From an uncultured Nitrospiraceae bacterium (GTDB lineage Bacteria; Nitrospirota; Nitrospiria; Nitrospirales; Nitrospiraceae), in contig CAWJWJ010000001.1 in assembly GCA_963846575.1 (NCBI GenBank), forward strand, positions 736,001-800,000: DNA of 64,000 bases, given 5' to 3'. This document shows positions 15,917 to 56,199 of the stretch, piece by piece (within the stretch, counting starts at the first letter, position 1; every line of letters starts with the position of its first letter). The position numbers and the translations under genes were made by a program. Below the pieces are notes generated by a model. It was not told the origin of the DNA. It saw only the letters and a list, made by a program, of their open reading frames with translations, and did no database searches.

Positions 15917-16003
15917 GCCGAAGTGGCGGAACTGGCAGACGCACTGGTTTCAGGTACCAGCGCCCGTAAGGGTATCCGGGTTCAACTCCCGGCTTCGGCA
16001 CCA
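15917..16003 (+). tRNA. tRNA-Leu(CAG)
   Basis: GCCGAAG/CTTCGGC acceptor stem, CTGGT-TTCAGGT-ACCAG anticodon arm, long variable arm, GGTTCAACTCC T-arm, encoded CCA. Confidence 0.97.
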
Positions 16004-24059: not shown

Positions 24060-24538
24060 ACGAAGACGGATATCGGACTCACATCCCATGACAGACTGGT
24101 ATTACCGGGATACTGAAGACCCTTTTGGCGAATGAGTATGTGTTGTACACCAAGACACGTCACTTCCCATTGGACGTTCGGGGACTTCACTTTCATGACC
24201 TGCACAAATTCTTCGAGAGCCAGTACGAGGAATTGGATGAGGTCGTGGACGAAGTCGCCGAACGCATCCGTACGCGTAATGACGTGAGCCCGGGGACGTT
24301 GGCCGAGTTTACGCAGATGACGAGACTCAAGGAGCAGCCGGAGAAGCAACTTGCGGCGAAAGACATGATCGGGCAACTTCTGTCCGATCATGAATCTGTG
24401 ATCCGGCAGTTGCGCATGGACGTGGAAAAGGTGGGAGGCGAATACCATGACGCTGGGACGAATGATTTTTCTGACCGGTCTCATGGAGCAGCATGAAAAA
24501 AAATTGCCTGGATGCTCCGGGCGCATTTGGAGGAGTAA
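24060..24538 (+). pseudogene. dps: Dps/ferritin-like pseudogene
   Basis: AAGGAGG then ACG in place of ATG; LYTKTR, FHDLHKFFESQYEEL..VDEVAERIR; frameshifts near 24095, 24470 and 24500; ends AWMLRAHLEE*. Confidence 0.85.
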
Positions 24539-24759: not shown

Positions 24760-25173
24760 TTAAAGGCCGGCCCGCGCTGATGGCGAAGGGCTGGGGTTGC
24801 AGGTATTGTCCGTACAGCCATTTGCACGGCCGGTCAGCCGGAGGCGGTTCGTTGCAAACCACCCATAGGCCTTCACAATGAGCGGTTCTACAAAGGATAG
24901 TCGACTCAGCCGCGCGAGGCTGCGCAACCCGACCGCTTCCCACATACCTCGGAAAACTTCGACAGCCGTGATCACCCTCCCATCCGCCCAGCGGGCGTGA
25001 ATCACCGCGCTGAGATCCGTGACAGCGAGCCCGGTCGATGCGGCATCGTATGCAGCAGATGAGAAATCGCAAAAGGCGAGACGCCCATGCCTGTCCATCC
25101 ATCTCATCAGCGCAATTTCCCGAGCACAGATGGGACAGGCTCCGTCATAGAATACGGTCAACGGATAGGGCAT
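24760..25173 (-). CDS. DCC1-like thiol-disulfide oxidoreductase (DUF393)
   Basis: FYDGACPICARE motif; Y..FA.NR. Confidence 0.88.
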   Translation of the reverse strand: MPYPLTVFYDGACPICAREIALMRWMDRHGRLAFCDFSSAAYDAASTGLAVTDLSAVIHARWADGRVITAVEVFRGMWEAVGLRSLARLSRLSFVEPLIVKAYGWFATNRLRLTGRANGCTDNTCNPSPSPSARAGL

Positions 25174-25195
25174 CGTCTCGATGGGGATCGGCCGG

Positions 25196-26110
25196 TTATG
25201 CACGACTGACCCGCCTTGTGAGCTGATCTAGCTTCTCATCCAGTTCATCGAAAGTTCCCAGAGTCTCGATGCCCGATTCCACAAAATGCTGGCGCAGGGC
25301 GAGCGCGCCATGGCCGCCGGCGAGGAGCGTGGAAACGGGTTTCACACCATCCGCGAGGGCCTGAATCACTTCCGCTGCCACACGGTCGGGAAGAGCGACC
25401 GGGAAGGAAAGAATGGTGAGGTCCGGAGATACATTCCGGCAGAGATTAGTGAGGGCAGGGATCGGCACGTTGGCGCCCAAATAGTAGACTCGACATCCGC
25501 GCAAGCGGCATCGATAAGCAACGGTGAGGGCGGCGATGTCATGCTCTTCTCCCGGGGGACAGGCCACCACCACTTTAACGCCGAATTCAGCCACTGGGAG
25601 CTGGTTCATGGCTGAAAACACCTTTTGTTGTATTTGTTTCGTCACGTAATGCTCGATGGCTACATTCACCTGGCCATCGTGCCAGAGTTGCCCGACCTGT
25701 TCTTGTAGTGGCAGCAAAATGCCGTGGAGCGCCTCTTCAAACGGAACGACGGCCACCGCTCCGTTCAAACGTTTCTCAAACGTCACCCGGTCAAACGGGT
25801 GCAACGCCGAAACCAACTCTTGCAGCAGCCGGTTGAATGTATTGTCCACGAGGGTTGCCCGCGGCGCGGCATTCCGTACCCGGGTCATCAGTTCTTCGCG
25901 TCCGAGCTGGGCAAGGGCGCCGATCGAAGCGCCCGCGTCCAGTTGTTCTTTGAGATAACGCAACAGAGCGACATCCTCGTCCGAATAATTTCGATAACGA
26001 TTGGCGCCTCGTGTCGGTTGTAGCAGGCCAAAACGTCGTTCCCATACCCGAATCACATCGCGACTCAAACCAGTAAGCTTGGCAACTCTTTGAATTCTAT
26101 GGGTATTCAT
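25196..26110 (-). CDS. CarH/LitR-type MerR regulator with cobalamin-binding domain
   Basis: MerR HTH (IRVWERRFGLLQP.R), W-x9-EH (WHDGQVNVAIEH), B12 motif GEEHDI..YLGANVP. Confidence 0.9.
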   Translation of the reverse strand: MNTHRIQRVAKLTGLSRDVIRVWERRFGLLQPTRGANRYRNYSDEDVALLRYLKEQLDAGASIGALAQLGREELMTRVRNAAPRATLVDNTFNRLLQELVSALHPFDRVTFEKRLNGAVAVVPFEEALHGILLPLQEQVGQLWHDGQVNVAIEHYVTKQIQQKVFSAMNQLPVAEFGVKVVVACPPGEEHDIAALTVAYRCRLRGCRVYYLGANVPIPALTNLCRNVSPDLTILSFPVALPDRVAAEVIQALADGVKPVSTLLAGGHGALALRQHFVESGIETLGTFDELDEKLDQLTRRVSRA

Positions 26111-26119
26111 TGCTGTGAC

Positions 26120-26149
26120 AGTATAGCCTCGAAGTCTAATGTTTGTCAA
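26120..26149 (-). promoter_or_regulatory. promoter of the regulator gene
   Basis: Minus strand TTGACA-18 nt-TATACT; spacer contains ACATTAGAC. Confidence 0.6.
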
Positions 26150-26168
26150 ACATATTTGAGATTAACTA

Positions 26169-26226
26169 TTGACACATTGGACATTATGCCTTATACATTA
26201 GACATAGTCGCTACAAACATTGAACA
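26169..26226 (+). promoter_or_regulatory. divergent promoter plus tandem direct-repeat operator
   Basis: TTGACA at 26169; ACATTGGACA (26174), ACATTAGACA (26195), ACATTGAACA (26217). Confidence 0.65.
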
Positions 26227-26245
26227 GAGTGATGTGGAGGTGACC

Positions 26246-26620
26246 ATGGCAACGTCGGCATTGAGGGAGCTCGCAGGAAGTCATGACATGCTGGATCGGC
26301 ACCAGAACCCACTGCATGGGCAGGTCTGCGCCCGATGCGGCGGACTCATTGTTGGTGAGTTTTGTATGGATCTACTAAACGGCGCAGACGAATGGAACTG
26401 TCCCATTGGCCGTTGCGTGCAATGCGGTGACATCGTCGATCCGGTCATCCTTCGGAATCGGCAGCTCAGCCAGCGACAAGCAGTCCCGGATCGTTCCTCA
26501 AAGGCTCAACCCGGAAGGCGTTCCGTGGAGACTTCTGGTTCAGCAGCCGCTGATACCTGTCGCGTTTCTCCCCATTCTTCTTCAATGTCCCGAGAAAAGC
26601 TGGATAGCGCGGATCGGTAA
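26246..26620 (+). CDS. small zinc-ribbon protein
   Basis: GGAGG RBS; CARCGG..CVQCGDIVDPVILRNR. Confidence 0.75.
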   Translation: MATSALRELAGSHDMLDRHQNPLHGQVCARCGGLIVGEFCMDLLNGADEWNCPIGRCVQCGDIVDPVILRNRQLSQRQAVPDRSSKAQPGRRSVETSGSAAADTCRVSPHSSSMSREKLDSADR

Positions 26621-26772
26621 ATATGATTCAACTCATTGAAATGCTTGAGTCTGTCCAGGGTGGTCTACGTATTGCTGTACATAGCCTCGGTATCCTGTCT
26701 GATGGGAGAGGGCCAGGTGTTTCAGTAGCGAGCACCTGAGAGTATCGGTCTGTTCAAACAAGGAGGTTTCCT

Positions 26773-27735
<963 letters not shown>

Positions 27736-27802
27736 CTTGTAACCGTGAGGGGGGGCGGGCATCCGCCTCTCCAACCGGGCCCTGAGGGGCAGGAGGTCCA
27801 GC

Positions 27803-28861
27803 ATGACACATTTACGCAGCATCCTTGGCGTGGGGCTTGTCTCGGCGATGACCCTCTTGACTGGAACAGCGCAGGCGGACGACTCAATGATCCCCGCGGA
27901 CATGGTGTATATCGGCCATGGTCCCTCGGCCATGGGATTGGACAGAGAGGCAAAGGCAGAGTCCGGTCGCCGACTGACGGCCTACGATAAGCGAATGAAG
28001 AAACCCTGGGCGGCCGAGGCCTTCCACGACGAAGGGCCGGCCCACATGGTGTTTTTAGACTCGTTCCTCATTGATACCTACGAGGTGTCGAACAAAGGCT
28101 ATGGCGAGTTCATCAAGACAAGCGGTCATCCGGCTCCGGCTTACTGGGACGATCCTCGCCTGAACAAGCCCCAACAGCCAGTGGTCGGAGTGAACTGGTT
28201 CGATGCCAAAACCTACTGCGAGTTCCGCGGCAAACGGTTGCCGACGGAGGCAGAATGGGAGAAGGCCGCCCGTGGTCCATTCGGCAATTTCTATCCCTGG
28301 GGGAACGAACTCGATCCTCAAAAGGCCAATTACAACCGGCAGCAGGATGCCACCTGGCCGGTGGACTCGCATCCGGAGGGGGCCAGTTACTACGGCGCGT
28401 TCAACATGGCGGGCAATGCCTTTGAATGGGTTTCGGATTGGTACGACCCGAAATACTACGGAAGGCTGGAGACCATGGTGAATCCGGCCGGTCCGGAGAA
28501 GGCCGTATGGCTTGGAGGTACCGGCACCTACGTGGACCGGCTGACGGTGGGAGAGAAGCGGGTCATTCGCGGCGGGTCCTGGATCGCCGCGGAAGGGACC
28601 ATCCGCTCTACGCATCGGTTCTGGAACCATCCGCTCAACAACAGTTACGGCGTAGGACTCGGGTTTCGCTGCGCCAAGACGGCGCCGCCTGAGTTCGAGC
28701 AACAAATCAGAGACGCCTATATCACCGCCCTGGTGGAAATGGGACGGGAGAAATTTGGCGAAGCCCTGCAGGTTGTCAACCGCGGGTTGGCCATGGACCC
28801 CAAGAATGTTCAATTGTTGGAGTTGCGGCCTCTGATTGATCAATCCATGAAGCGGCCGTGA
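27803..28861 (+). CDS. secreted FGE-sulfatase-fold protein with TPR-like tail
   Basis: Same motifs; close paralog of 26773 (GHPAPAYWDDPRL, HRFWN..NNSYGVGLGFRC). Confidence 0.92.
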   Translation: MTHLRSILGVGLVSAMTLLTGTAQADDSMIPADMVYIGHGPSAMGLDREAKAESGRRLTAYDKRMKKPWAAEAFHDEGPAHMVFLDSFLIDTYEVSNKGYGEFIKTSGHPAPAYWDDPRLNKPQQPVVGVNWFDAKTYCEFRGKRLPTEAEWEKAARGPFGNFYPWGNELDPQKANYNRQQDATWPVDSHPEGASYYGAFNMAGNAFEWVSDWYDPKYYGRLETMVNPAGPEKAVWLGGTGTYVDRLTVGEKRVIRGGSWIAAEGTIRSTHRFWNHPLNNSYGVGLGFRCAKTAPPEFEQQIRDAYITALVEMGREKFGEALQVVNRGLAMDPKNVQLLELRPLIDQSMKRP

Positions 28862-28917
28862 GAGTGAATGTCTAAAGCTGAGTCCGGCTTACTGTTCAGC
28901 ACGACGGAGGCAGAGGA

Positions 28918-29286
28918 ATGACATACGCTAACGCATTCGCGCTCGTGGCTTTTTTGACGGTGTTCCTCAGCGCAGGGGCCCTCCGGGCAGGTCCGATCGA
29001 TGTGAGCCACCATCCCCATCCTGAGAAAATCCAGATGGTGCATGAGGCGGAGCATAGTGTGGACAAGGCCTGGGAGATCTATCATCGCGCGGCGCTCGGC
29101 GGCACGATCGCATCGCCTCTCCTGCAAGCGGAAATCGAGCAGCATCTACATGACGCACGGACCCTCGTGTCCCAGGCGCAACGGGCCGCTGATCGGGGAG
29201 ATACGGTCGGGGTGGAGCGCCTGGTCGGTGAAATCAAGATCCATACAGCCCAGGCAATAGAGGGGAGCAAGGAGCAGAAGCAATGA
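28918..29286 (+). CDS. secreted His-rich helical protein
   Basis: Signal peptide; HHPHPE..HEAEH; stop overlaps the next start (ATGA). Confidence 0.7.
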   Translation: MTYANAFALVAFLTVFLSAGALRAGPIDVSHHPHPEKIQMVHEAEHSVDKAWEIYHRAALGGTIASPLLQAEIEQHLHDARTLVSQAQRAADRGDTVGVERLVGEIKIHTAQAIEGSKEQKQ

Positions 29287-30146
29287 GATACCGTCAGGAA
29301 CTGGCAGCCACGAGATGGAGACGTATCGTTCCGGGGGTCACGACATTGGGTGTGGTCGTGATGACAGCGGCGCTCGCGGCAGCCGCTGCCGCTGAACTTG
29401 ATCCGGTTCCCATGGTGAACATAACCGCCGGACCGTTCCTGATGGGCACTCAAAGTCCGAAGGGTCGCGCCGACGAGTGGCCGCAACGAAGCGTGCACCT
29501 CGATGCGTTCGCCATCGATCAAGTTGAGGTGACCAATGAACGCTACCTGACGTTTGTCAAGGCGAGCGGCCATCGGAATCCGCCGAATCCGTATGACAGC
29601 GGACTTCTCCTGTCGGCCAAAGGAATCGAGCAGCTGCCTGTCGTGCAGGTGACCTGGTACGACGCGAAGGCCTATTGCGCCTGGGCTAAGAAACGTTTGC
29701 CGACGGAAGCGGAATGGGAAAAAGCGGCTCGCGGCACCGATGGACGCCATTTCCCGTGGGGCGAAGCTCAGCCCACCCACGGCATGGCGAATTTCGATCG
29801 CGAATGGGATGGAGTGAAGACCCTGCATGCGGTGGGTTCCCTGTCGGGAGGCGATTCGCCTTACGGGATCAAGGACTTGTCGGGCAACGCTCGCGAATGG
29901 GTGCAGGACTGGTATGAAGCCGACTATTACGCGACTGCGCCTGACAAGAATCCCCGGGGACCGGATAAGGGGATTGTTCGGGTGATTCGAGGAGGCTCCT
30001 GGCACAGCCCCATCTCGGATATCACGGCGACGTCACGCGGACGAGGTGGATTTGCGTTACAGACGCATGGCACCGGTTTCCGTTGTGCCCGCGGGGGAAA
30101 TGAACCGGATCAAGAGCAATCGATGTCTGAGGAAGTTGCGAAGTAA
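29283..30146 (+). CDS. secreted FGE-sulfatase-fold protein
   Basis: FLMG, PVVQVTW, RLPTEAEWEKAARG, DLSGNAREW, RGGSW, GFRC. Confidence 0.92.
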   Translation: MRYRQELAATRWRRIVPGVTTLGVVVMTAALAAAAAAELDPVPMVNITAGPFLMGTQSPKGRADEWPQRSVHLDAFAIDQVEVTNERYLTFVKASGHRNPPNPYDSGLLLSAKGIEQLPVVQVTWYDAKAYCAWAKKRLPTEAEWEKAARGTDGRHFPWGEAQPTHGMANFDREWDGVKTLHAVGSLSGGDSPYGIKDLSGNAREWVQDWYEADYYATAPDKNPRGPDKGIVRVIRGGSWHSPISDITATSRGRGGFALQTHGTGFRCARGGNEPDQEQSMSEEVAK

Positions 30147-30365
30147 ACAGCATGGAAGGATGTTGTCTTGAACAGAACTCGATCGTTCGTTCCTGGTGGA
30201 CGCACCGCTACTCCGCACGGTGCCTCCCGCTGAGGCGGATGGGTTCTTCTACACAGAAGGACTCATCCCCTCGGTGAGGCATGGGAATACACGAAGCATC
30301 CGACCCACAGCAGCCCGGTGAGACGACGCCCTGATGGAGGAGGTCATCGTATATGGGGAGTTCCA

Positions 30366-30716
30366 ATGGAAACACCTGGGACACCGGAAACAAACTCTTC
30401 CGCTTCGGAGCCGGGAGGCGAGATCTGTCCACGCTGCGGAGGGTTGTTGCTGACGCAGCATTACATTGACTTGCTCGATGATACCGGGGAAATCGATATT
30501 ACGGCCTGGCATTGCACCATCTGTGGCGAGGTACTCGACCCGGTGATTGTCAAGAATCGGCAGAGTCCAGCTCCGAATCTGCTGTATGGAACAAAGGAGC
30601 GGAAATACAGCCAAATGGTCACCGACATCATCGAGGAAAGTTCGTCGGATGGGACACAGGCATGTGAGGATGATGATGTTTCACCTGATGGGCCGGAAAA
30701 CGACCGCGGGGCGTAG
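30366..30716 (+). CDS. small zinc-ribbon protein (paralog of 26246)
   Basis: CPRCGG..CTICGEVLDPVIVKNR. Confidence 0.75.
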   Translation: METPGTPETNSSASEPGGEICPRCGGLLLTQHYIDLLDDTGEIDITAWHCTICGEVLDPVIVKNRQSPAPNLLYGTKERKYSQMVTDIIEESSSDGTQACEDDDVSPDGPENDRGA

Positions 30717-30748
30717 CCGACGACCACGGTGAACCGGAGGGTCAGCTC

Positions 30749-31657
30749 ATGAAAATCATTGTGGCCGGTGGAACAGGATTCATCGGCCAGGCTCTAGTCG
30801 ATGAATTGTCCGGCCAAGGACATGAAGTGGTCGTCCTGACGCGAAACTCAGGCCGGCCTTCTCAGGCATCAGTACGGTTCGTGGAATGGGACGCAGTCTC
30901 GTTAGGGTCCTGGAAGGACGAGTTCGCCTCCGCTGATGCGGTGGTCAATCTGGCCGGGGAGTCGATCGCCGAAGGTCGTTGGACCGAGGCTCGCAAGCGA
31001 TTATTGCTCAACAGCCGGCTTCTCGCGACCAGAGTCCTGGTCGCGGCGATGGCGGCACATGCTGGCCATCCCCTCGTCCTGATCAGCGCATCGGGCATCG
31101 GTTATTACGGGGCCAGTGACGATCGGTTGTTGGATGAAGGCGCCCCTCAGGGCCAAGGTTTTCTCGCCGACCTGTCAGCGGCGTGGGAAGCCGAGGCGTT
31201 GCGCGCGAGTCAGTCTGGGACGCGGGTCGTGCTCTTGAGGACAGGTATGGTGCTCGAAGCGGACGGGGGGGCGTTGCCAAAAATGTTGCTCCCCTTTCGG
31301 TTGTTCGCCGGAGGGCCGATCTCGCCCGGTACGCAGTGGGTCTCGTGGATTCACCGTAGAGACCACATCGGTCTGATTCAATGGGCTCTCACGACATCAG
31401 CTCTCTCCGGACCGGTGAATGCCGTGGCTCCCGAGGCCGTCATCATGAATGAGTTCTGTGCGACGCTCGGCACGGTGCTTCATCGTCCTTCGTGGCTGCC
31501 CGTTCCCGGCCTCGCCCTCCGGTTGGCGTTGGGTGAATTGGGCACGCTTCTGACGACCGGCCAGCATGTCGATCCTGCGAAGGCCCGTAGGGAGGGGTAC
31601 GTCTTTCGACATCCGAAGCTGGAGGAGGCCCTTCAGTCAATCGTGACGAAGGCGTGA
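30749..31657 (+). CDS. TIGR01777/YfcH-type NAD-dependent epimerase family protein
   Basis: GGTGFIG, VNLAGESIA.GRWT, SWIH..D, GPVN.VAP. Confidence 0.92.
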   Translation: MKIIVAGGTGFIGQALVDELSGQGHEVVVLTRNSGRPSQASVRFVEWDAVSLGSWKDEFASADAVVNLAGESIAEGRWTEARKRLLLNSRLLATRVLVAAMAAHAGHPLVLISASGIGYYGASDDRLLDEGAPQGQGFLADLSAAWEAEALRASQSGTRVVLLRTGMVLEADGGALPKMLLPFRLFAGGPISPGTQWVSWIHRRDHIGLIQWALTTSALSGPVNAVAPEAVIMNEFCATLGTVLHRPSWLPVPGLALRLALGELGTLLTTGQHVDPAKARREGYVFRHPKLEEALQSIVTKA

Positions 31658-31673
31658 GTAAGGAGCAACGGAT

Positions 31674-32156
31674 ATGGGGATCCTCATGGAATCCGTGACC
31701 CACTATGTTCACGCGCTTGCCCTCGCCATCCTCTTGGGCAAGGTGGTCTTGCTGTCGTTTGTGGTGGCCCCGATTCTCGCGAAGAATCTGGAAAGGGAGC
31801 CGTTCGGAACAGTCGTGCGCCAGCTGTTTCCCGCATATTACCTGTTGGGCATGGTCGCGGCTGCCGCGGGACTCGTGGCTTTGATCGGGATCGGCAGTCT
31901 GCGAGGGTTGAGTCCGGCATTGTTAGGCGCGGCGGGGATCTGGCTCGTGGTCCTGGTGGCCGAATCCTACTGCCGGTCGCCGTTGACGCCGCAGAGTAAC
32001 GCGATGCGGGACCGGCTCAAAGAACAGGAAGAGCAGGGTAACGTCGATCCCGCCCTGCAGGTGTCTTGGAATCGACTCCACCAGCGGTCCATTTATTTGA
32101 ATTCGGTCGTACTGTTCGGGGGGCTCTGTCTGTTGGGAATCGCGCAGCAATTCTAG
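31674..32156 (+). CDS. DUF4149/TMEM205-like membrane protein
   Basis: SFVVAP, LFP.Y, LH..S..LN motifs; 4 TM. Confidence 0.85.
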   Translation: MGILMESVTHYVHALALAILLGKVVLLSFVVAPILAKNLEREPFGTVVRQLFPAYYLLGMVAAAAGLVALIGIGSLRGLSPALLGAAGIWLVVLVAESYCRSPLTPQSNAMRDRLKEQEEQGNVDPALQVSWNRLHQRSIYLNSVVLFGGLCLLGIAQQF

Positions 32157-32178
32157 CTTCGATGAAGGAGACGAAGAC

Positions 32179-32658
32179 ATGAACAGGCACATCAATTGGT
32201 ATCTGGCATTCGGATTTTTGAGCCTCATCCTGATCCAGTCGCCTATGAGAGGACAGGAAATCCTGGCGGCCGGTGAAGCGGCTAATCCGGAATCGCAGGC
32301 TCAGCCATCGCGTGGATCCGAAGCGACGATTCCGGATGGTGTGATCGGAGTCTCGCTCCATGTTGGGGCGGAACGAGTGGGCGATACGGCGGTGCTCTAT
32401 GTCGCGCACGTGTTGCCCGAAGGCCCGGCGCAACGGGCCGGACTTAAGCAGGGTGATGAGATCACGACGGTGGATGGCGAGCCCGTGACCGGCAAGACGT
32501 ATGAACAAGTGGCCTTAATGGTGCGAGGGGCCGCCGGGTCGGTCGTCAAACTCGCCGTCAAGGGAGACGGAGGTTCTCGCGAGGTCTCCGTCACGCGCAC
32601 GGCCAGTCAAACGCTCTACAAGGGACAGATGGGATCGCACGGCGGCTCTGCCAAATAG
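32179..32658 (+). CDS. secreted PDZ-domain protein
   Basis: Signal peptide; GVIGV, PAQRAGLKQGDEITTVDG. Confidence 0.85.
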   Translation: MNRHINWYLAFGFLSLILIQSPMRGQEILAAGEAANPESQAQPSRGSEATIPDGVIGVSLHVGAERVGDTAVLYVAHVLPEGPAQRAGLKQGDEITTVDGEPVTGKTYEQVALMVRGAAGSVVKLAVKGDGGSREVSVTRTASQTLYKGQMGSHGGSAK

Positions 32659-32665
32659 GTGGTCT

Positions 32666-33190
32666 ATGTACAGGATGATCGCAATACTCGGATTATTCGT
32701 CGCTCTCGTGGCGGAACCGGCTGCGTACGCCCACGACCGGATGATCCAGACCGCCGGGGTATCCTCCGTTGAGCGGACCAAGGTCTACCTGATGGCCGGC
32801 GACTATCGCCGAGCGCTGGAAGCCTGTGAACGGGTCATTCAGGAATTGCCTTCGGTAGAAGGATACCTTCATCTCACATACGTGTATCAAGCCATTGATG
32901 CGTATCTGGAGCAATTGTCTCAAGACGAGAGCTGGATGGCGGTTGAACAGTTGTATCTCAATCTGGCCTACCGCCATACGGAGGATCTCGTCGATCCTCC
33001 CGGCGGCCTGGCCCGCATGGCCAAAGAGATGATTCAAACCAGCGTCCGGCAACAATCGGACCTCAGCGCCGCGATGGCGGCTCGTCTGGACAAAGCTGAG
33101 TCCGACCGGCTCTGGCAGGAGCAGACGAAGTGGCGGAAGGCACACCCCACCACGTGGTGGCGAGGTTTTCCTGATCCGTGGGTTCGTTGA
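32666..33190 (+). CDS. secreted helical (TPR-like) hypothetical protein
   Basis: Signal peptide; YLMAGDYRRALEAC. Confidence 0.7.
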   Translation: MYRMIAILGLFVALVAEPAAYAHDRMIQTAGVSSVERTKVYLMAGDYRRALEACERVIQELPSVEGYLHLTYVYQAIDAYLEQLSQDESWMAVEQLYLNLAYRHTEDLVDPPGGLARMAKEMIQTSVRQQSDLSAAMAARLDKAESDRLWQEQTKWRKAHPTTWWRGFPDPWVR

Positions 33191-33238
33191 TCAGCACGGG
33201 TGCTCAAGCGCAACGGTCTCGGACAAGGAGATCGAACT

Positions 33239-33670
33239 ATGGCCAGACACCGAACTGCAGGCGGTCTCGATATCAAACTGTTCGGAGCACTCTTTCTGCT
33301 CGTGGGACTGATTGATGTGCTCATCATTGAAATGTTCCCGGCCTATGAGCTGAAACTGTTCGGCGCCGCGGTCACGGGCCCGCTGGCCTATGTGGTCAAG
33401 CTGCATTCGCCGGCCGCGCATTTTCTGATCGGCTACGGGTTTCTGTTCCTGCGCCCATGGGCCTGGGGTCTGGCCATCGCCTATGGCGGCTTCGGCCTCA
33501 CGAGCGAATTGATGAACCAGGTTGCGTACGGAGTGCATCCCTTACGAACCGGCTTCATGGCTGCTACCGTGTTGTTCATCTGCTATGTGGCCTGGCGCCG
33601 CAACGTGTTTGTTGATTCCGCTCCCTCGCCCGGGCGCGTGGCCTCTTCATCGCCGGGGGTGCACTCATGA
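33239..33670 (+). CDS. membrane protein (4 TM)
   Basis: AAGGAG RBS; hydrophobic helices; stop overlaps the photolyase start. Confidence 0.75.
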   Translation: MARHRTAGGLDIKLFGALFLLVGLIDVLIIEMFPAYELKLFGAAVTGPLAYVVKLHSPAAHFLIGYGFLFLRPWAWGLAIAYGGFGLTSELMNQVAYGVHPLRTGFMAATVLFICYVAWRRNVFVDSAPSPGRVASSSPGVHS

Positions 33671-35112
33671 AGGGATTGGTCTGGTTTCGTCGCGACCTCC
33701 GGGTCCGTGACAATTCCGCCCTCTCAGCGGCCTGCGAAGAATGCCGGGAGATTGTCCCTTTGTTTGTATTCGATGAACCGCTGTTACGATCGCATGTATT
33801 CGGGTCGGCGAGCGTCACATTCATGCTGGGCTGTCTCGAGGAACTGAAGGCGTCCCTGGCCGCCCGAGGCCTCACGCTCGCGTGGCGGATCGGCGAGCCG
33901 ATCGACACAGTGCTGCAGACTGCCAAGGATCTCGCGGTCGATGCGGTGTATTGGAACCGTGACTACGAACCGGCCGCGCTGCATCGGGATCGCACGATTC
34001 AGCAGAGGCTGGCGCGCAAGGGTCGCACGGTGCGGACGTTTAAGGACCATGTGGTATTCGAGGCCGAAGAAGTGCGCGGATTGACCGGTGAACCGTTCCA
34101 GCGCTACAGCGCCTACCGTGATCGCTGGTGGGTGAAATGGAAGGCTGCGGCGCCGCCGGTCCTCCCCCTGCCCACGTTCAAGCCGGCGAATCCGGAAGGA
34201 CCGGTCCCGGATTCCCCGCTATGGCCTTCCGCAGCGGACCTCGGCTACCAGTCGGTGCCGATGTGGATCGAGCCCGGTGAACAAGCGGCGCGTGCCCGGC
34301 TGCAGTGGTTCCTGCGTGGACCGATCCATGACTATGTCAGCGGCAGAAACCTTCCGGCGAGCGACGGGACCTCCAGACTGTCTCCGCATTTACGATTCGG
34401 GACGATCTCCGCTCGCACCGCCATTCATGCGGCTCTGACCGCACTCTCGAAAGGCGGTGCGGTGTCACGTGCCGATGTCTACACATGGGTTGACGAACTT
34501 GTCTGGCGAGATTTTTTCCAACAGGTCTTGACCGCCTTTCCCGCCGTCGCCAACGGACCCTTTAAGAAGAAGCCGACCCTTCCCCCATGCCGGCCGGCAG
34601 GATCCGAGCGGGATCGATTATTCGCCGCCTGGTCCCAGGGTCTGACCGGCTATCCGATCGTGGATGCGGGCATGCGGCAGTTGAAGCAGACCGGCTGGAT
34701 GCACAACCGCGTTCGAATGGTCGTCGCCTCATTTCTCGTGAAGGATCTCCGGATCGACTGGCAGAGCGGCGAGCGGTATTTCATGCAGCAGCTTGTCGAC
34801 GGAGACCTGGCGGCGAACAACGGGAACTGGCAATGGTGCGCCTCGACCGGAACGGATGCCATGCAGGGCTACAGGATTTTCAATCCGCGGATTCAAAGCG
34901 AAAAGTTCGATCGAGAGGGCGAATATCTCCGGCGCTATGTACCGGAATTGAACGGCGTTCCGGCGAAATGGATTCATGAGCCGCATCTCATGCCCCGGGA
35001 GGAACAAGCACGGGCCGGATGCCGGATCGGCGAAGAGTACCCCGAACCCATCGTGGATCACCGGCAAGCCCGCCAGGAATACCTTGAACTAGGAAAGCAG
35101 AGGGCGACGTGA
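33667..35112 (+). CDS. phrB: deoxyribodipyrimidine photolyase (class I CPD/cryptochrome family)
   Basis: WFRRDLRVRDN, TSRLSPHLRFG, GYPIVDAGMRQL..TGWMHNRVRM, NNGNWQW. Confidence 0.95.
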   Translation: MKGLVWFRRDLRVRDNSALSAACEECREIVPLFVFDEPLLRSHVFGSASVTFMLGCLEELKASLAARGLTLAWRIGEPIDTVLQTAKDLAVDAVYWNRDYEPAALHRDRTIQQRLARKGRTVRTFKDHVVFEAEEVRGLTGEPFQRYSAYRDRWWVKWKAAAPPVLPLPTFKPANPEGPVPDSPLWPSAADLGYQSVPMWIEPGEQAARARLQWFLRGPIHDYVSGRNLPASDGTSRLSPHLRFGTISARTAIHAALTALSKGGAVSRADVYTWVDELVWRDFFQQVLTAFPAVANGPFKKKPTLPPCRPAGSERDRLFAAWSQGLTGYPIVDAGMRQLKQTGWMHNRVRMVVASFLVKDLRIDWQSGERYFMQQLVDGDLAANNGNWQWCASTGTDAMQGYRIFNPRIQSEKFDREGEYLRRYVPELNGVPAKWIHEPHLMPREEQARAGCRIGEEYPEPIVDHRQARQEYLELGKQRAT

Positions 35113-36065
35113 TGACGAACAGTCCCCTCCGTCTTGGCATCAGCCGTTGCCTGCTCGGGGAAGAAGTTCGGTTCGATGGCGGGCACAAGCGGGATGCTTT
35201 TCTGACGAATCTCCTGGGCCGGTACGTCGAGTGGGTGCCGGTCTGTCCGGAAGTCGAGGCCGGGCTGGGCACTCCTCGTGAAGCGATGCGGCTGGTTGGT
35301 AGCCCGGCCGAGCCCCGGCTGTTGACCATCAAGAGCGGACGAGATCACACCCGGGCGTTGGAAGCGATGACGGCCGCACGACTTCCTGAACTGGAGGAGT
35401 TGGACTTGTCCGGCTACGTGTTCAAGAAGGACTCTCCGAGCTGCGGCATCGAACGGGTTCGCATTTACAATGAACAGGGCATGCCGGGACGGAACGGAAT
35501 CGGACTATTTGCACGAGCCTACATGCAGCGATTTCCGATGATTCCGGTGGAGGAGGAAGGAAGGCTCTGCGATCCGCCGCTTCGGGAGAATTTCATTGAG
35601 CGGGTATTCTGTTATCGCCGGTGGCGCGATCTGAGTCAGAGTGGCGTGACCCGGCAGGCGGTGGTGCACTTCCACACGATCCATAAATACCTCCTGCTCG
35701 CCCATGATGCCCAGCGATATCGCCTCCTCGGACGGCTGGTGGCCGCGGCGAATGAGTATCGACCCAAGGATCTGGCGTTACGCTATGGCGAACTCTTCAT
35801 GCAGGCGTTGGCTGTGAAGGCGACCGTACGCAAGCACGTGAATGTGCTCCAGCATATCCTGGGATATTTCAAAGAGCGTCTGGCCCAGCAGGAGAGGGCT
35901 GAACTGATGAGCGTCATCGACGATTACCACCAGGGGCTCACGCCTCTGATCGTTCCTCTGACCTTGATCAAACACTATGTACAGATCTTTGACGTAGCCT
36001 ATATCCGGGATCAGGTCTATCTGAATCCCCATCCGAAGGAACTGATGCTCCGGAATCATGTATAG
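35109..36065 (+). CDS. DUF523-DUF1722 fusion (YbgA/RudS-like thio-pyrimidine desulfidase)
   Basis: GISRCLLGEEVRFDGGH, VCPEVE.GLGTPRE, SPSCG, EEEGRL, Q.YL.P.P.EL. Confidence 0.9.
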   Translation: MMTNSPLRLGISRCLLGEEVRFDGGHKRDAFLTNLLGRYVEWVPVCPEVEAGLGTPREAMRLVGSPAEPRLLTIKSGRDHTRALEAMTAARLPELEELDLSGYVFKKDSPSCGIERVRIYNEQGMPGRNGIGLFARAYMQRFPMIPVEEEGRLCDPPLRENFIERVFCYRRWRDLSQSGVTRQAVVHFHTIHKYLLLAHDAQRYRLLGRLVAAANEYRPKDLALRYGELFMQALAVKATVRKHVNVLQHILGYFKERLAQQERAELMSVIDDYHQGLTPLIVPLTLIKHYVQIFDVAYIRDQVYLNPHPKELMLRNHV

Positions 36066-36207
36066 CGCGGAGGGCCAGGTCATCGAGGCTTGCCTCGAAC
36101 ATGAAGCGGGTGTCGCAGGGAAAACATCAACCAGCAGGTTTGCAGGAAATCCGAAGGTCCCGGGTTGAGAGGGATCGAACAGGACAGGTAGCAAGGAGGA
36201 GTGGGCG

Positions 36208-36717
36208 ATGTCGACAAAAACAAGAGGCGTGATTTTGGTTGGCCATGGTGGAATCCCGAAGGACTGCCCACAGGACCTCGTGACGCGATTGAAACGGCTG
36301 GAAGCCCAACGCAGGGCCGCCAAGCTCCCACCCACGCCGGAAGAAAACGAATTAGACGCGAAGATCCGGCGATGGCCGCGGACCGCCGTGACGGAGCCCT
36401 ATCAAGCGGGTCTTGAAACCGTGGCGGCGCGACTCCGGACTCAATTGAATGGTGCGCTGTTTGCCGTTGCCTATAACGAGTTTTGCGCTCCGACTCTCGA
36501 AGAGGCGGTGGAGGATCTGGTGAAGCAAGGGGCGACGGACATTACGGTCACGACCACCATGTTTACCCCGGGCGGGTCGCATTCCGAGATCGAGATTCCG
36601 GAGATTCTCGAACAGCTTCAGAAACGGTACCCGTCCATCGACCTCCGTTATGCCTGGCCGTTTGATCTGGACCTCGTCGCAACCACTTTGGCTGAACAGA
36701 TCAAGCGATTTGCCTGA
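36208..36717 (+). CDS. CbiX/SirB-family chelatase-like protein
   Basis: ILVGHG, AYNEFCAPTL, PGGSHSE.EIP. Confidence 0.8.
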   Translation: MSTKTRGVILVGHGGIPKDCPQDLVTRLKRLEAQRRAAKLPPTPEENELDAKIRRWPRTAVTEPYQAGLETVAARLRTQLNGALFAVAYNEFCAPTLEEAVEDLVKQGATDITVTTTMFTPGGSHSEIEIPEILEQLQKRYPSIDLRYAWPFDLDLVATTLAEQIKRFA

Positions 36718-36852
36718 CCGGGTCGTGGCAAGGATGCCGCTCTCTAGTTCGCCTGGAGAGATGCGAGGCAGATGGGGCGATGCATCGGGGCCTGGTCAGG
36801 AATCCGTCCGGGTTTTCCCCTCGTAGTAGTAAACATAGGGAAGGAGTCCGTG

Positions 36853-37048
36853 ATGCACCCGGTGATCGAGCGATTTAAACAGATGTATCACCGATTGTTG
36901 CCCGGTCTGTGGGATTGTTGAGCGAGCGGTACGGCGACGACAGCGAGGCTGTCTACCAGCGGGACTAGTTCGATGCCGGTGGGATGTTGTACGAGCAGCT
37001 TCCGTTCAGCGGGTCGGTCATCGGGATCATCAGGGGCGAGTGTGAGCC
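36853..37048 (+). pseudogene. NTF2/SnoaL-like gene remnant
   Basis: AAGGAG RBS, MHPVIERFKQMY, then VYQRD*FDAGGMLYEQLP (family pattern YHRDYFD..MLYE..P); internal deletion and in-frame stop. Confidence 0.7.
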
Positions 37049-37819
37049 ATGCGGCGACTGCACGTAAAAGACCGTCGGGTCTGGGTCACGGGGGCCTCGG
37101 CCGGCATTGGCCGCGCGGTGAGTGTTGAACTGGTTCGTCGGGGGGCGAGGGTCATCGCCTCGGCGCGGAACGACGGAGCCCTTGCCGGGCTTGCCCGGGA
37201 ATGCGGTGACGATCGTGTCATCGCCCTTCCACTCGATGTGACGGACCGACAGGCCAACCAGCGCGCGGTGGATGAGATTCGCCGACGATGGGGCACTCTG
37301 GATATTGCCTTCTTGAACGCCGGTACCTGCGAGTATGTCGATGTCGCGACCTTTGATTGCGCACCCTTCGAACGCACGATGCGCACGAACTTCCTGAGCA
37401 TGGTGTATGGCATCGAGGCCGTACTACCGCTGCTGCGGCAGTCACCGTCCGCCCAGTTGGTGGGAATGAGCAGTACGGTCGCCTATGGCGGCCTGCCACG
37501 CTCCGAAGCCTACGGTGCGTCGAAGGCGGCCATCAAACATTTGTTCGAATCCCTGCAAGCCGATCTGTTCCCCGAAGGTATCAGCGTCTCCGTCGTCTGT
37601 CCGGGTTTCGTGCGTACCGCGTTAACCGACCGGAACGACTTTCCGATGCCCTTTCGCATCGAGGCCGAGGAGGCAGCTCGGCGGATCGTGGACGGGATCG
37701 AGCGCAGGCAGCCGGAGATTCATTTTCCCAAGCGATTCAGCCTGCCCTTCAAGCTGCTGACGCTGCTCCCGAGCCGGCTCTACATGCGATTGCTCTCAAC
37801 GATGGTGACGCAGCCATGA
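37049..37819 (+). CDS. short-chain dehydrogenase/reductase
   Basis: TGASAGIG, NAG, YGASK, PGFV.T.LT. Confidence 0.93.
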   Translation: MRRLHVKDRRVWVTGASAGIGRAVSVELVRRGARVIASARNDGALAGLARECGDDRVIALPLDVTDRQANQRAVDEIRRRWGTLDIAFLNAGTCEYVDVATFDCAPFERTMRTNFLSMVYGIEAVLPLLRQSPSAQLVGMSSTVAYGGLPRSEAYGASKAAIKHLFESLQADLFPEGISVSVVCPGFVRTALTDRNDFPMPFRIEAEEAARRIVDGIERRQPEIHFPKRFSLPFKLLTLLPSRLYMRLLSTMVTQP

Positions 37820-39075
37820 GAATTGCCATCATAGGAACCGGTATTGCGGGACTGACCGCGGCCCATCTGCTGCACCAGGCGCATGACCTCACCGTCTTCG
37901 AAGCAGGGGATTATATCGGGGGGCACACACATACGCTCGACGTTGAACATCAGGGACACACCTATGCGCTGGATACCGGGTTTATCGTGTTTAACGACTG
38001 GACCTACCCCAATTTCATTGCCCTGCTGGACCGCCTCCAGGTGGCGTCACAGCCGAGCGACATGAGTTTCAGTGTCCGTTGTGAACGGACCGGCCTGGAG
38101 TACAACGGCGCCACCCTGAACCGGCTGTTTGCTCAGCGACGTAATCTGTTGCGGCCGTCGTTTTATCGCATGATCCGGGACATCCTCCGCTTCAACCGGG
38201 AGTCGCTCGAACTCCTCGACGACCCTGGGACGGGACCGTCGCTGGGTACGTACTTGGAGCGGAACCGATATTCCCAGGCGTTTATCCAACACTACATTGT
38301 TCCGATGGGGGGGGCGATCTGGTCGGCCGGCCATGCCACGATGTGGGAGTTTCCCGCGCGGTATCTCGTCCAGTTTTTTAAGAACCACGGCATGTTATCG
38401 GTCAATGAACGACCGACGTGGCGAGTGGTCACGGGCGGCTCGCAACGGTATGTGGAAAAACTGGTGCGTCCGTTCCGTGATCGCATCCGACTGCAGTCTC
38501 CAGTGGAATCTATCAGCCGGGGTCCCGGTTGGGTTGAGGTGCGGGGACGTGACTGCGGCGGAAGCTATCGTACCGAACAATTCGACGGAGTCATTCTGGC
38601 CTGCCATAGCGATCAGGCGCTCGGACTCCTGGCCGACCCCTCACCGTTGGAAAAGGATATTCTGGGAGCCATTCCCTATCAGCAAAACGAGGCGGTCCTG
38701 CATACCGATCGTTCGCTCCTGCCGAGGCGTCGCCTCGCCTGGGCCTCCTGGAATTATCATCTGTCAGCCGTCCGGCCGGACCACGCGCTCGTGACGTACC
38801 ACCTGAATCAACTCCAGGGACTGTCGGCGTCCTGCGAATTCTGCGTCACTCTGAATCACACCGATACGATCGATCCGTCGGCGATCCTGAAACGGCTCAT
38901 CTATCACCATCCTCGCTACACCCCCGAGGCGATTGCCGCTCAACGACGGCATGGCGAAATCAACGGGAAGAACCGAACCTTTTACTGCGGTGCCTACTGG
39001 GGGTTTGGATTTCACGAAGACGGCATCACGAGTGCCATGGCGGCTTGCCGGAATCTGACGACGGTGGGCGCATGA
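37816..39075 (+). CDS. FAD-dependent oxidoreductase (UfaD-like desaturase)
   Basis: IAIIGTGIAGL, GGH.HT, DTGFIVFN..TYPNF, AWASWNY, GFHEDG. Confidence 0.9.
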   Translation: MRIAIIGTGIAGLTAAHLLHQAHDLTVFEAGDYIGGHTHTLDVEHQGHTYALDTGFIVFNDWTYPNFIALLDRLQVASQPSDMSFSVRCERTGLEYNGATLNRLFAQRRNLLRPSFYRMIRDILRFNRESLELLDDPGTGPSLGTYLERNRYSQAFIQHYIVPMGGAIWSAGHATMWEFPARYLVQFFKNHGMLSVNERPTWRVVTGGSQRYVEKLVRPFRDRIRLQSPVESISRGPGWVEVRGRDCGGSYRTEQFDGVILACHSDQALGLLADPSPLEKDILGAIPYQQNEAVLHTDRSLLPRRRLAWASWNYHLSAVRPDHALVTYHLNQLQGLSASCEFCVTLNHTDTIDPSAILKRLIYHHPRYTPEAIAAQRRHGEINGKNRTFYCGAYWGFGFHEDGITSAMAACRNLTTVGA

Positions 39076-39857
39076 AGAGCTGTGTCTATGAGGGGACCAT
39101 AAGGCACCGACGGACCGCGCCCATTCACCACGCGTTCCAATACCGAATCTTTATGATGTATCTCGATCTCGCCGAGCTGCCTACTGTGTTCCGGGGGCGA
39201 TATCTCTGGTCCGCGCACCGCCCCAATGTGGCCTGGTTCAGCCAGGCCGACCATCTCGGGACCCTGCTATTCCCATTGGACCGCAACGTCCGCGACCTCG
39301 TCGAGCTGAAAACCGGTCGGCGGCCAGCCGGTCCCATCCGTCTCCTGACGCATCTTCGGTACTTCGGGTACGGATTCAATCCGGTGAGTTTCTATTTTTG
39401 TTTCGACCCGCTCGATCAGCACGTGGAAACCATTGTTGCCGAAGTGAGCAATACGCCCTGGGGCGAACAACATTGCTATGTATTGGGAGCGGCCTTGGAC
39501 GAAGGCACCGGACGTCGTCACCGCTATCGCTTTGACAAGCAATTCCATGTGTCCCCTTTCATGGGCATGGACGTGGATTACGATTGGCGATTCGGGACGC
39601 CGGGCGCCGGACTGGGAATCCATATGGAAAATTTACAGGACGGGAGGCGGTTTTTCGACGCCACCATGATCCTGCGCCGTAAGGAGATCACGGGGCCCTC
39701 CCTCGCCCGGGTCCTGGTCCAGTATCCGATGATGACCCTGCGGGTCATCGCAGCCATTCACTGGCAAGCGTTGCGGTTGTGGCTCAAACGTTGTCCCTAC
39801 GTGCCCCATCCCAGCAGGCACAGGCCCACTATTCGCCCAGGGAGGATTTCCGGATGA
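39072..39857 (+). CDS. DUF1365 family protein (UfaO-like)
   Basis: HRR..P..H.F.Y, FNPVSFYFC, AEVSNTPWGE.H.Y, K.FHVSPF, IHWQAL.LW.K. Confidence 0.92.
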   Translation: MKSCVYEGTIRHRRTAPIHHAFQYRIFMMYLDLAELPTVFRGRYLWSAHRPNVAWFSQADHLGTLLFPLDRNVRDLVELKTGRRPAGPIRLLTHLRYFGYGFNPVSFYFCFDPLDQHVETIVAEVSNTPWGEQHCYVLGAALDEGTGRRHRYRFDKQFHVSPFMGMDVDYDWRFGTPGAGLGIHMENLQDGRRFFDATMILRRKEITGPSLARVLVQYPMMTLRVIAAIHWQALRLWLKRCPYVPHPSRHRPTIRPGRISG

Positions 39858-41161
39858 ACGACCTTGTGTCTGCCGAATGCCCTTCAAGGCTTGAAGATCG
39901 TCAGGTCACGGATGCCGCGAGTGAGCGTCGGCCAAGCCTGTCGATCACACTCGCGCGATCCCTGGTCTTTGCCCGCTTGCGACGGATCAGCCAGGGAACG
40001 ATGACGGTCGTCGAGGGCGAGCGTCGTACGGTCTTCGGGGACCCTTCCTTATCTTCCGCGCTCCGGCCGACTGTGATGATTCAGGATCCGCGCTGTTATG
40101 TGGACATAGCCTGGAGCGGGACTGTCGGAGCAGGGGGGAGTTACGCGCGTGGCGCCTGGCAGTGCGACGATCTCACGGCACTCATCCGATTGTTCGTCCT
40201 AAATCGGCAGCTGGTGGACGGCATGGAACGAGGGCTGGCTCGACTCTCCGCCCCGTTCTTCAGAGCCGTTCACCGACTGAGCCGGAATACCAAGGCAGGC
40301 AGCCGGCAGAACATTGCGGCCCACTACGATCTCAGCAATGAGTTTTTTTCGCTCATGCTGGACGGTGCCATGATGTATTCCTGCGCGTATTTCCAGCGTC
40401 CCGACAGTACGTTGGAGGAAGCTTCGCGCGCAAAGCTTGACTTGATCTGCCGGAAGCTTCACTTGGCCAGCCGTGATCATCTGCTGGAAATCGGGTCGGG
40501 GTGGGGCGGTCTGGCTTGCCATGCCGCTGAGACCTACCGCTGCCGTGTGACGACCACGACCATTTCACGGGCGCAGTACGACAGGGCTGTGCGTCGGGTT
40601 CGAGAGGCAGGGCTCTCCGATCGTGTCCAGGTGCTGTTGACCGACTATCGGGATCTGCCCGCTTTGGGTATCCAGTTCGATAAGCTGGTGTCCGTAGAAA
40701 TGATCGAGGCCGTGGGACATGAATACTACAACACCTTCTTCGAAACGTGCAGTCGATTGCTCAAGGCTGACGGGCTCATGCTTCTGCAAACCATCACCAT
40801 TGATGAACGGTACTATGAACGGGCGAAGAAATCGGTCGACTTTATCCAGCGCTTCATTTTTCCCGGTAGTTGCATCCCGTCAGTGAACACCTTGTGTCTT
40901 GCCATGGCGAAGGCCTCGGATTTAAGCCTGTTGCATCTTCACGACATCGGCGCGCACTACCCCCCCACATTACGGAGCTGGCGCCACAATATCCGACGGA
41001 ATCTGAAACAGGTGCGGCAGCTTGGACTCGGTCCCGAGTTTCTTCGCTTGTGGGAATTCTATCTTTCCTACTGCGAGGGAGGCTTTCTGGAGCGATCGAT
41101 TTCGACGGCTCACCTGCTATGTGCCAAGTCTGGTTGGCGTCAGAATTTGCTGCCAGGATAA
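39854..41161 (+). CDS. cyclopropane-fatty-acyl-phospholipid synthase family methyltransferase (UfaM-like)
   Basis: NIAAHYDLSN.FF, MYSCA, LLEIGSGWGG, S.EMIEAVG, FIFPG, W..YL.YCEGGF. Confidence 0.93.
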   Translation: MNDLVSAECPSRLEDRQVTDAASERRPSLSITLARSLVFARLRRISQGTMTVVEGERRTVFGDPSLSSALRPTVMIQDPRCYVDIAWSGTVGAGGSYARGAWQCDDLTALIRLFVLNRQLVDGMERGLARLSAPFFRAVHRLSRNTKAGSRQNIAAHYDLSNEFFSLMLDGAMMYSCAYFQRPDSTLEEASRAKLDLICRKLHLASRDHLLEIGSGWGGLACHAAETYRCRVTTTTISRAQYDRAVRRVREAGLSDRVQVLLTDYRDLPALGIQFDKLVSVEMIEAVGHEYYNTFFETCSRLLKADGLMLLQTITIDERYYERAKKSVDFIQRFIFPGSCIPSVNTLCLAMAKASDLSLLHLHDIGAHYPPTLRSWRHNIRRNLKQVRQLGLGPEFLRLWEFYLSYCEGGFLERSISTAHLLCAKSGWRQNLLPG

Positions 41162-50790: not shown

Positions 50791-50800
50791 GGTCTTCTTT

Positions 50801-52360: not shown

Positions 52361-52384
52361 TGTGTGTCCAACAACTCCGCTGCG

Positions 52385-54388: not shown

Positions 54389-54389
54389 G

Positions 54390-54692
54390 TTACCACTTCA
54401 AAAGATTCATTTCATCGACGTTAGTGGATATCTTGCCGCGGAATACGACAATGATGATGGCCAGCCCAATGGCTGCTTCCCCCGCTGCAATGGCGATGAC
54501 GAAGAGCGCCACGATCTGGCCCTGCATGGAGTCGAGATAATGGGAAAAAGCGACCAGGTTGATGGTGGCCGCGTTCAGCATGATCTCGACCGACATCAGC
54601 ACGATAATGAAATTGCGACGGATCAGCACACCGAGGAGCCCGGTTACGAACAGAATCAGACTCACAGTGACATATGCAGAAAGAGGAATCAT
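54390..54692 (-). CDS. nuoK: NADH-quinone oxidoreductase subunit K
   Basis: RRN.I..LMS.EIMLNA; AAGEAAIGLA. Confidence 0.95.
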   Translation of the reverse strand: MIPLSAYVTVSLILFVTGLLGVLIRRNFIIVLMSVEIMLNAATINLVAFSHYLDSMQGQIVALFVIAIAAGEAAIGLAIIIVVFRGKISTNVDEMNLLKW

Positions 54693-54700
54693 AGGTACCG

Positions 54701-55018: not shown

Positions 55019-55030
55019 GGTTGCTTCGCT

Positions 55031-55555: not shown

Positions 55556-55566
55556 AACGGTATGAT

Positions 55567-56154: not shown

Positions 56155-56199
56155 GCACATCACCCTCTGCCGACATTAGAAAGACGGACGAGCTTACTC

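Follow-up and report, generated by a model that had tools for sequence, protein, structure and literature searches.

A CarH-type regulator facing an exported protein arm, a structured RNA and predicted photorepair genes in Nitrospira

Introduction

CarH, which together with class I LitR is known from Thermus thermophilus, Bacillus megaterium and myxobacteria, has an operator of tandem 11-bp nnnnTnnACAn repeats lying over a -35 or -10 box (PMC9304148). In Pseudomonas, light acting through a class II LitR induces phrB, ufaM and genes for an SDR and an FAD oxidoreductase (PMC9758184). TudS-DUF1722 fusions of the RudS type strip tRNA of 4-thiouridine and are encoded in light operons (PMC11417400), and DUF1365 has been placed in UfaO (PMC7380195). 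Here we describe a related locus in a 64,000-nucleotide stretch of DNA from an uncultured Nitrospiraceae bacterium (the window, to which all coordinates refer unless a locus is named), in which a CarH-type regulator is divergent from a run of 18 genes that begins with exported proteins, continues past a structured RNA and ends with predicted photorepair genes. The window is part of a 4.2-Mb genome in two contigs (G000), and its placement in Nitrospira rests on named homologs.

With CarH and class I LitR the Nitrospira regulator shares its domain order, the W-x9-EH and ExH motifs, the RxWERR helix, tandem TnnACA repeats over a promoter and a layout suited to autoregulation; in contrast to those systems, the run has no carotenoid genes and its first targets are exported proteins. 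The pmlR1 region of Pseudomonas (PMC9758184) likewise joins a MerR regulator to phrB, SDR, FAD oxidoreductase, ufaM and RudS genes, and neither system has crt genes among those listed. Class II LitR, however, has no Rossmann B12 domain, and a LOV protein acts as its switch, whereas the Nitrospira regulator has both B12 domains, and the accessible account of the pmlR1 region describes no exported arm, chelatase or RNA element. As read from its predicted genes, the distal half of the run is a repeat of the known Pseudomonas LitR light regulon (phrB, SDR, FAD oxidoreductase, ufaM and RudS; PMC9758184, PMC11417400); the regulon is a variant of known light regulons and its distal part is already known biology. 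What is new is an exported arm whose genes are lost together, with related proteins in Nitrospinaceae, a step in transcript abundance, and a covarying RNA with no Rfam match.

Results

A CarH-type regulator faces 18 genes across a conserved operator

The regulator gene (25196–26110, minus strand) encodes a 304-residue protein with MerR_1, B12-binding_2 and B12-binding domains, the helix-turn-helix, four-helix and Rossmann B12 architecture of CarH and class I LitR; all annotated domains of window proteins were found at their stated positions by profile searches. The protein has W143-H144...E153-H154 (W-x9-EH, with His after Trp) and E188-x-H190, a recognition helix, RVWERRF, that conforms to the RxWERRY signature of the class, and T. 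thermophilus CarH as its best match in the PDB (5C8D, E 4e-29). The lower B12 motif, published as D/ExHx2G/P-x41-SxT/V-x22-27-GG (PMC9304148), keeps its His, Ser, GG and both spacings, with Ala at H+3 and S-F-P (Pro at S+2). At 130.4 bits the protein falls below the 400-bit cut-off of the NCBIfam CarH model NF052513. Its sequence indicates that it is probably CarH-like and a class I member. In a second family, an in-line MerR/B12 paralog lies between the RudS and CbiX-like genes (L069:15349–16317, L072–L075), and some in-line paralogs of that family and of the genus g12 lack the His of the EH pair.

The preliminary description of this DNA had noted that the window has no crt genes. This holds and extends further, with no crtI-family match above the cut-off in this genome and none in 30 genomes at E<=1e-40. 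The genome has two SQS_PSY matches, which, reading them by eye, we take to be hopanoid-type squalene synthases.

The 135-bp region between regulator and run carries TnnACA repeats on both strands, at 26149 (minus) and at 26169, 26178, 26192, 26199 and 26221 (plus), forming a predicted operator (26133–26226) that follows the published repeat consensus (PMC9304148) and overlaps both predicted -35 boxes. ACATTRRACA occurs three times in it at 21/22-bp spacing, and positions 26199, 26210 and 26221 form an 11-bp tandem of repeat, pseudo-repeat and repeat, with clearer 11-bp series in L068–L070. The array is conserved in 32/32 aligned intergenic regions; its density of 7 per 100 bp is the genome maximum, tied with two other windows of the scan, and ACATTRRACA sites cluster nowhere else in the genome. 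When 38 loci were scanned, the array was the densest window in ten of the 11 with a divergent regulator, the exception being the arm-less G051, and it was not seen at loci lacking one. The predicted sigma-70 promoter of the regulator (26120–26149, minus strand; TTGACA-18-TATACT, 11 of 12 positions) is conserved in the alignment and lies immediately upstream of the ATG at 26110, so that a nearly leaderless regulator transcript is expected. We rejected a second promoter ahead of FGE1, as we found no conserved one there, only a strong and conserved Shine-Dalgarno sequence.

Facing the regulator, 18 plus-strand open reading frames extend from 26246 to 41161 with intergenic gaps of -4 to 331 nt, confirming the divergent arrangement with about 18 co-directional genes given earlier, and every domain then named for the proximal and distal halves was found in its place. 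Zinc ribbon 1 (znr1, CxxC...CxxC; 26246–26620) comes first. It is followed by the exported arm, defined as FGE1 (26773–27735), FGE2 (27803–28861), a small three-helix protein (28918–29286) and FGE3 (29283–30146), FGE denoting the formylglycine-generating enzyme fold. Because the upper B12 motifs are intact and the regulator faces the run across a conserved TnnACA array, we propose repression of a long transcript by the regulator. On balance we judge it probable that one long transcript is under CarH-type repression and that an RNA within it splits a high-output exported tier from a low-output repair tier.

A covarying two-hairpin RNA lies at a step in transcript abundance

Between FGE3 and zinc ribbon 2 (znr2, 30366–30716) lies a conserved 75-nt element (30201–30275, plus strand) with two predicted hairpins, P1 (30201–30224, loop 30208–30217) and P2 (30229–30275). 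Across 66 distinct copies, column identity is 0.89 in P1, 0.96 in the loop and 0.80 in P2, compared to 0.44–0.47 in the flanks. In a structure derived from the same alignment as the covariation count, 96.4% of cells are paired and 12 of 23 pairs show two-sided changes, values as high as these being reached in 0/500 shuffles, while slid controls pair 40–51% of cells. The excess of G-U over A-C cells (300 against 20) favours the plus strand, and the region folds with z = -3.2. A covariance model found the element in 15/40 genomes, all of this family, two of them only weakly or with a weak second match. Three identities were rejected: a genome-wide repeat, since this genome has one copy; a known Rfam family, since 30201–30275 has no match there; and a classical U-tailed terminator, since there is no U-tail.

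The element stands directly before photolyase in G148 and G185 and before amoC in G290, where a lone amoC has been inserted directly behind it (L117:9240–10040). Extra copies in G290, G240 and G229 (L321–L324) accompany small gene strings led by a zinc ribbon; the exported gene beside them presumably resembles AmoD/PmoD. In G036 (L052) the arm is deleted between two zinc-ribbon paralogs, and the regulator, the RNA element and the distal genes remain.

Published transcript means for N. moscoviensis (PMC6606698, Table S1), to which we matched genes by coordinates, are 6821 for FGE1 (rank 8), 2312 for FGE3 (rank 42), 1647 for the small gene (rank 65) and 629 for the regulator (rank 275). Further along they are 180 for znr2, 51 for the epimerase, 84 for the PDZ gene, 71 for the TPR gene, 60 for photolyase, 46 for RudS and 69 for the CbiX-like gene; we saw no rows in that table for znr1, FGE2 (split in N. 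moscoviensis), DUF4149 or the membrane gene. Genes behind FGE3 thus have 13–45-fold lower transcript than FGE3, and because of this fall the run does not behave as a single uniform unit. The position of the RNA at the drop suggests a causal role.

At the protein level, FGE1 ranks 359 in the N. moscoviensis proteome against 1639–2086 for the others (PMC8407350, whose transcript columns reanalyse the same N. moscoviensis data). In N. marina (PMC8115632) an FGE protein, unchanged by oxygen, gave 76–101 spectra compared to 2–22 for its neighbours; it lies ten gene numbers from a 169-residue CbiX protein and, by gene order and length alone, is probably FGE1. The supplements of PMC6478695 contain no rows for genes of the locus.

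The exported arm is lost as a unit, mostly together with the regulator

We compared 25 same-genus loci of 20 kb each, one of which stops at a contig break. The znr2, epimerase, DUF4149, PDZ, membrane, photolyase, RudS and CbiX-like genes are present in 25/25, FGE1, the small gene and FGE3 in 23/25, and the dispensable FGE2 in 21/25; the TPR gene is absent from one or two, and each gene from znr2 to cbiX keeps its place in the order in 23–25 of 25. The earlier idea that the proximal genes are syntenic with the regulator in relatives was borne out for the exported arm.

In a wider set of 80 of 128 genomes, chosen for completeness and spread, FGE1 occurs in 47; all of these also have the small gene, of which one further genome holds a fragment. 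Within the family (52 genomes), 30 have arm and regulator, 18 neither, two the regulator only and two, at contig ends, the arm only; the second family (23 genomes) divides into 10 with both, five with the arm only and eight with neither. On a coarse tree of two proteins from 62 genomes, a CarH-like gene is likewise missing from 16 of the 19 clades that have no arm. The exported arm has been lost as a unit, mostly together with CarH.

These abundance and distribution data bear on a different explanation, which we consider unlikely, though a serious possibility: that the arm is a constitutive, abundant periplasmic part of nitrite oxidisers under a leaky CarH promoter, with light mattering mainly for the distal genes. 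Such a role would fit the transcript ranks and the FGE1 protein rank in nitrite-grown N. moscoviensis, as well as the abundance and oxygen insensitivity of the probable FGE1 of N. marina. It would also fit the presence of relatives in Nitrospina gracilis and other Nitrospinaceae, the same gene order on a metagenome locus (L238), and the retention of the arm without an operator in g12. In N. gracilis Nb-211 the gene numbers of photolyase, TIGR01777 and DUF523/1722 are far apart (PMC11428151), a dispersal that points in the same direction; the arm itself could not be identified in the accessible tables of that study, among 15/24 'formylglycine' rows and two in a second file. FGE1, however, is absent from 33/80 genomes, and five arm-less genomes among these carry type II molybdoenzyme genes of about 1150 residues, below the cut-off, a length that we take to be that of NxrA. 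FGE1 is therefore dispensable for nitrite oxidation as such. The operator, moreover, immediately precedes the arm, which has no second promoter, and the in-line CarH paralog of g12 was never found without the arm, even though retained genes separate the two.

Corrinoid supply and the chelatase-like gene

A cluster of the genome that we read by eye as one for corrinoid uptake and salvage encodes an adenosyltransferase and, in two pieces, CobS; CbiD, the sole marker of de novo corrin synthesis searched for, was not found. The cobS and apparently also the cobU gene (G000:C2, about 1917200–1919800) are in pieces that may be assembly errors, which bears on whether B12 salvage is intact. Within the run, a single-domain CbiX/SirB-like protein with a helical insert (36208–36717) matches SirB and CbiX structures, and its two candidate metal-binding residues, H13 and H125, are invariant in 38 sequences. 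Its gene is present in 72/74 Nitrospirales genomes. We rejected a role as a B12-pathway chelatase, given that CbiD was not found. Just behind the CbiX-like gene in g12 are EB_dh-domain genes (L107:4462–5415, L073, L074 and L075; Pfam for L107 only).

The regulator might read corrinoid supply more than light, its apo form leaving the DNA when B12 is scarce, with the arm and chelatase rescuing corrinoid or cobalt. That the genome salvages B12 but CbiD was not found, that the chelatase His pair is invariant, that the locus is kept in photolyase-free genomes, and that in G051 (L071:181–1771) the regulator and the CbiX-like gene stand alone as a divergent pair, the other genes being absent, all speak for this. 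We nevertheless find it improbable: the photochemical residues, W-x9-EH with His after Trp, are intact; photolyase and RudS share the run; the run has no transporter, and the B12 uptake cluster elsewhere has no top-ranking repeat array; N. moscoviensis has a separate annotated cbiX; and many genomes without the regulator retain the CbiX-like gene.

The exported proteins

FGE1, which has a helical C-terminal tail, its paralog FGE2, with the same loop, and FGE3, with a different conserved loop, are exported domain matches that share their fold, by sequence (E about 1e-34), with formylglycine-generating enzyme (6MUJ, 2Q17, 1Y1E) and with non-catalytic FGE-fold proteins. Sequence comparison showed that all three lack the catalytic Cys pair, which is replaced, and a true formylglycine-generating enzyme was rejected. 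They differ from the enzyme further in their export, the helical tail and an invariant loop, HRFWNxPxNNSYG, in FGE1, whose orthologs are 66–88% identical across two families; we assume that this loop sits at the ligand-site position of C-type-lectin-fold relatives. A structure model of FGE1 from a 12-row alignment was unusable (predicted local distance difference test score, pLDDT, 42).

The small exported protein, of an unnamed family, overlaps FGE3 by 4 nt and is predicted to form three helices (pLDDT 89); a fold search with it gave no match at E<=0.001. The 'His-rich secreted protein' of the preliminary description is indeed secreted, and nine of its 98 mature residues are His in this genome, but among 36 orthologs a single His is invariant. 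Like SmbP (PF16785, 3U8V) it is small, exported and helical, as well as His-rich in this genus, and its Atlas neighbours bear automatic SmbP names with scores under 0.9. We rejected this identity on four grounds: no PF16785 match, three helices, a Foldseek template-modelling score of 0.20 to 3U8V, and His residues that are not conserved. A metallo-maturation module, as suggested earlier, finds little support, with FGE proteins that lack copper cysteines and a small protein that fails the SmbP comparisons. A search of 1.84 billion sequences gave 77 representatives of the three-helix family at E<=0.001, about ten of which, weak and long, look unrelated. Named members among the 17 representatives looked up are Nitrospirota, Nitrospina gracilis, Ca. 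Nitrohelix and a Nitrospinaceae bacterium. On the short, Nitrospinaceae-like metagenome locus L238 the order is FGE2, small gene, FGE3 and FGE with the same loop; a metagenome scan with the N. gracilis protein found no locus.

Relatives carry insertions in the run, namely thiol-peroxidase-like, glutathione peroxidase, DUF2867, cytochrome c-FGE, NapC/NirT and amoC genes. In G202 (L116:2053–4447) two copies of the arm flank genes for a cytochrome c-FGE fusion, a NapC/NirT cytochrome and a true SMBP. It is very improbable that the FGE-fold proteins are PvdO-like periplasmic oxidoreductases acting on a photo-oxidised small molecule and passing electrons to cytochromes, since the cytochromes beside the G202 arm copy, the His, Trp, Asn and Tyr of the invariant loop and a weak match to PvdO, whose activity we presume, are set against the lack of a catalytic Cys, heme motif or redox partner in the usual run, PvdO scores far under the cut-off, and the 15–16 FGE-fold paralogs that the genome has in unrelated settings.

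The distal genes

Behind znr2, itself a domain match, the plus-strand run continues with a TIGR01777 (YfcH-type) epimerase-family protein above the cut-off (30749–31657), a DUF4149 membrane protein (31674–32156), an exported single-PDZ protein (32179–32658), an exported TPR-like protein with weak TPR matches and one paralog (32666–33190), and a membrane protein without a Pfam or NCBIfam match that is present in 25/25 same-genus loci (33239–33670). The zinc ribbons were rejected as specific markers of the locus, because about 13 small paralogs occur in the genome in unrelated settings.

A single-copy DNA photolyase (33667–35112; PF00875 and PF03441) is followed by a RudS-type TudS-DUF1722 fusion, a predicted tRNA 4-thiouridine desulfidase (35112–36065), with both Pfam matches above cut-off and Cys 13, 45 and 111 present. 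As in the described RudS (PMC11417400), the fusion lies next to photolyase and a MerR regulator, and ThiI, encoded in the genome, is there to make the substrate; here, by contrast, the function is predicted from sequence, and genomes without regulator or photolyase still retain the gene next to the CbiX-like one.

Downstream of a broken SnoaL-like remnant recognised by sequence reading (36853–37034), an accessory ufa-like block (37049–41161) comprises SDR, FAD oxidoreductase, DUF1365 and CFA-type methyltransferase genes. Its methyltransferase (CMAS), FAD oxidoreductase and DUF1365 genes stand side by side, as do UfaM, UfaD and UfaO of Rhodobacter sphaeroides (PMC7380195), a comparison made by domain only. 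There the genes are under ChrR/sigma-E control, whereas here the block is accessory and partly decayed: it lacks the first and last genes of relatives (chalcone-isomerase-like and DUF2878), and FAD and DUF1365 genes occur in 11/25 same-genus loci.

Other features of the window

Directly behind the regulator is a DCC1-like thiol-disulfide oxidoreductase gene (24760–25203, minus strand; PF04134; likely start 25173), present in 21/25 same-genus loci. Beyond it, a Dps/ferritin gene (24125–24520) is broken near an A-run, which may be an assembly error. Elsewhere, a radical-SAM-like gene (4247–6106) and an NADH dehydrogenase-like gene cluster (47645–60221) were recognised by eye, and there is one tRNA (15917–16000).

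Discussion

In the repression model that we favour, the family to which the regulator belongs suggests that adenosylcobalamin from salvaged corrinoid would hold it on the repeats over both promoters; photolysis would free it, so that light or a lack of B12 would lift repression. The hairpins would then stop read-through, or shield a 3' end after processing, leaving the upstream message 13–45-fold higher. The distal tier may limit photodamage through photolyase and removal of a UVA-sensitive (ultraviolet A) tRNA base, and possibly through metal insertion into photosensitising tetrapyrroles and, where the block is present, furan fatty acids. Least certain is the exported tier, which would most likely be a non-catalytic periplasmic binding complex with an invariant lectin-type pocket for a single defined ligand; this ligand is probably a cofactor of the periplasmic electron chain that is damaged or has come free, and the three-helix protein would act as partner of FGE3. 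Both light control of the arm and its predicted role as a periplasmic binder are inferred here. We counted peroxidase-family gene insertions in relatives' runs in favour of the model.

Several observations weigh against it. Distal counts are low and, except for znr2 and the epimerase, do not track the arm over nine samples. Arm genes rank with the most abundant transcripts of a culture grown in a glass chemostat, for which the accessible text mentions neither light nor dark and reports no light stress (PMC6606698), and the FGE protein is abundant in an N. marina strain otherwise kept dark, the light on the bottles being unstated (PMC8115632). We found no light/dark data set, and none of the RNA runs listed contains this stretch. 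The lower B12 motif deviates at two positions, joint loss of neighbouring genes can arise by single deletions, and in g12 the arm occurs in 10/17 genomes with photolyase in 0/17 and no operator array. The RNA lacks a U-tail, precedes photolyase in G148 and G185, and stays after arm deletion (G015, G036), features as compatible with a leader as with a 3' element. Of the photoprotection operon first envisaged, the CarH-type regulator, the conserved operator, the synteny and the predicted DNA, tRNA and membrane protection genes stand; the expression step, the accessory and decayed ufa block, and an arm without photolyase or operator in g12 weaken it.

A broader and doubtful proposal is that Nitrospira and Nitrospina have in common a dedicated and very abundant periplasmic cofactor-rescue complex guarding the periplasmic nitrite-oxidising chain, gated in Nitrospira by a B12 photoreceptor together with a cis-regulatory RNA of a new class, whose invariant loop would sense a ligand or a protein. 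If this were true, the patchy presence of the complex would predict which nitrite oxidisers tolerate light.

We found no published Nitrospira light sensor in the literature and no description of this locus in print, subscription papers and bioRxiv supplements lying outside the search. Nitrite oxidisers are inhibited by light, an effect that shapes nitrite profiles in the ocean and is exploited to suppress these organisms in wastewater treatment. The locus offers a candidate sensor, operator and targets that are testable in cultured strains, provides a setting for an unannotated gene that is among the most strongly transcribed in N. moscoviensis, and includes a structured RNA not described before. 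Its presence or absence across closed genomes would give a direct prediction of strain differences in light tolerance.

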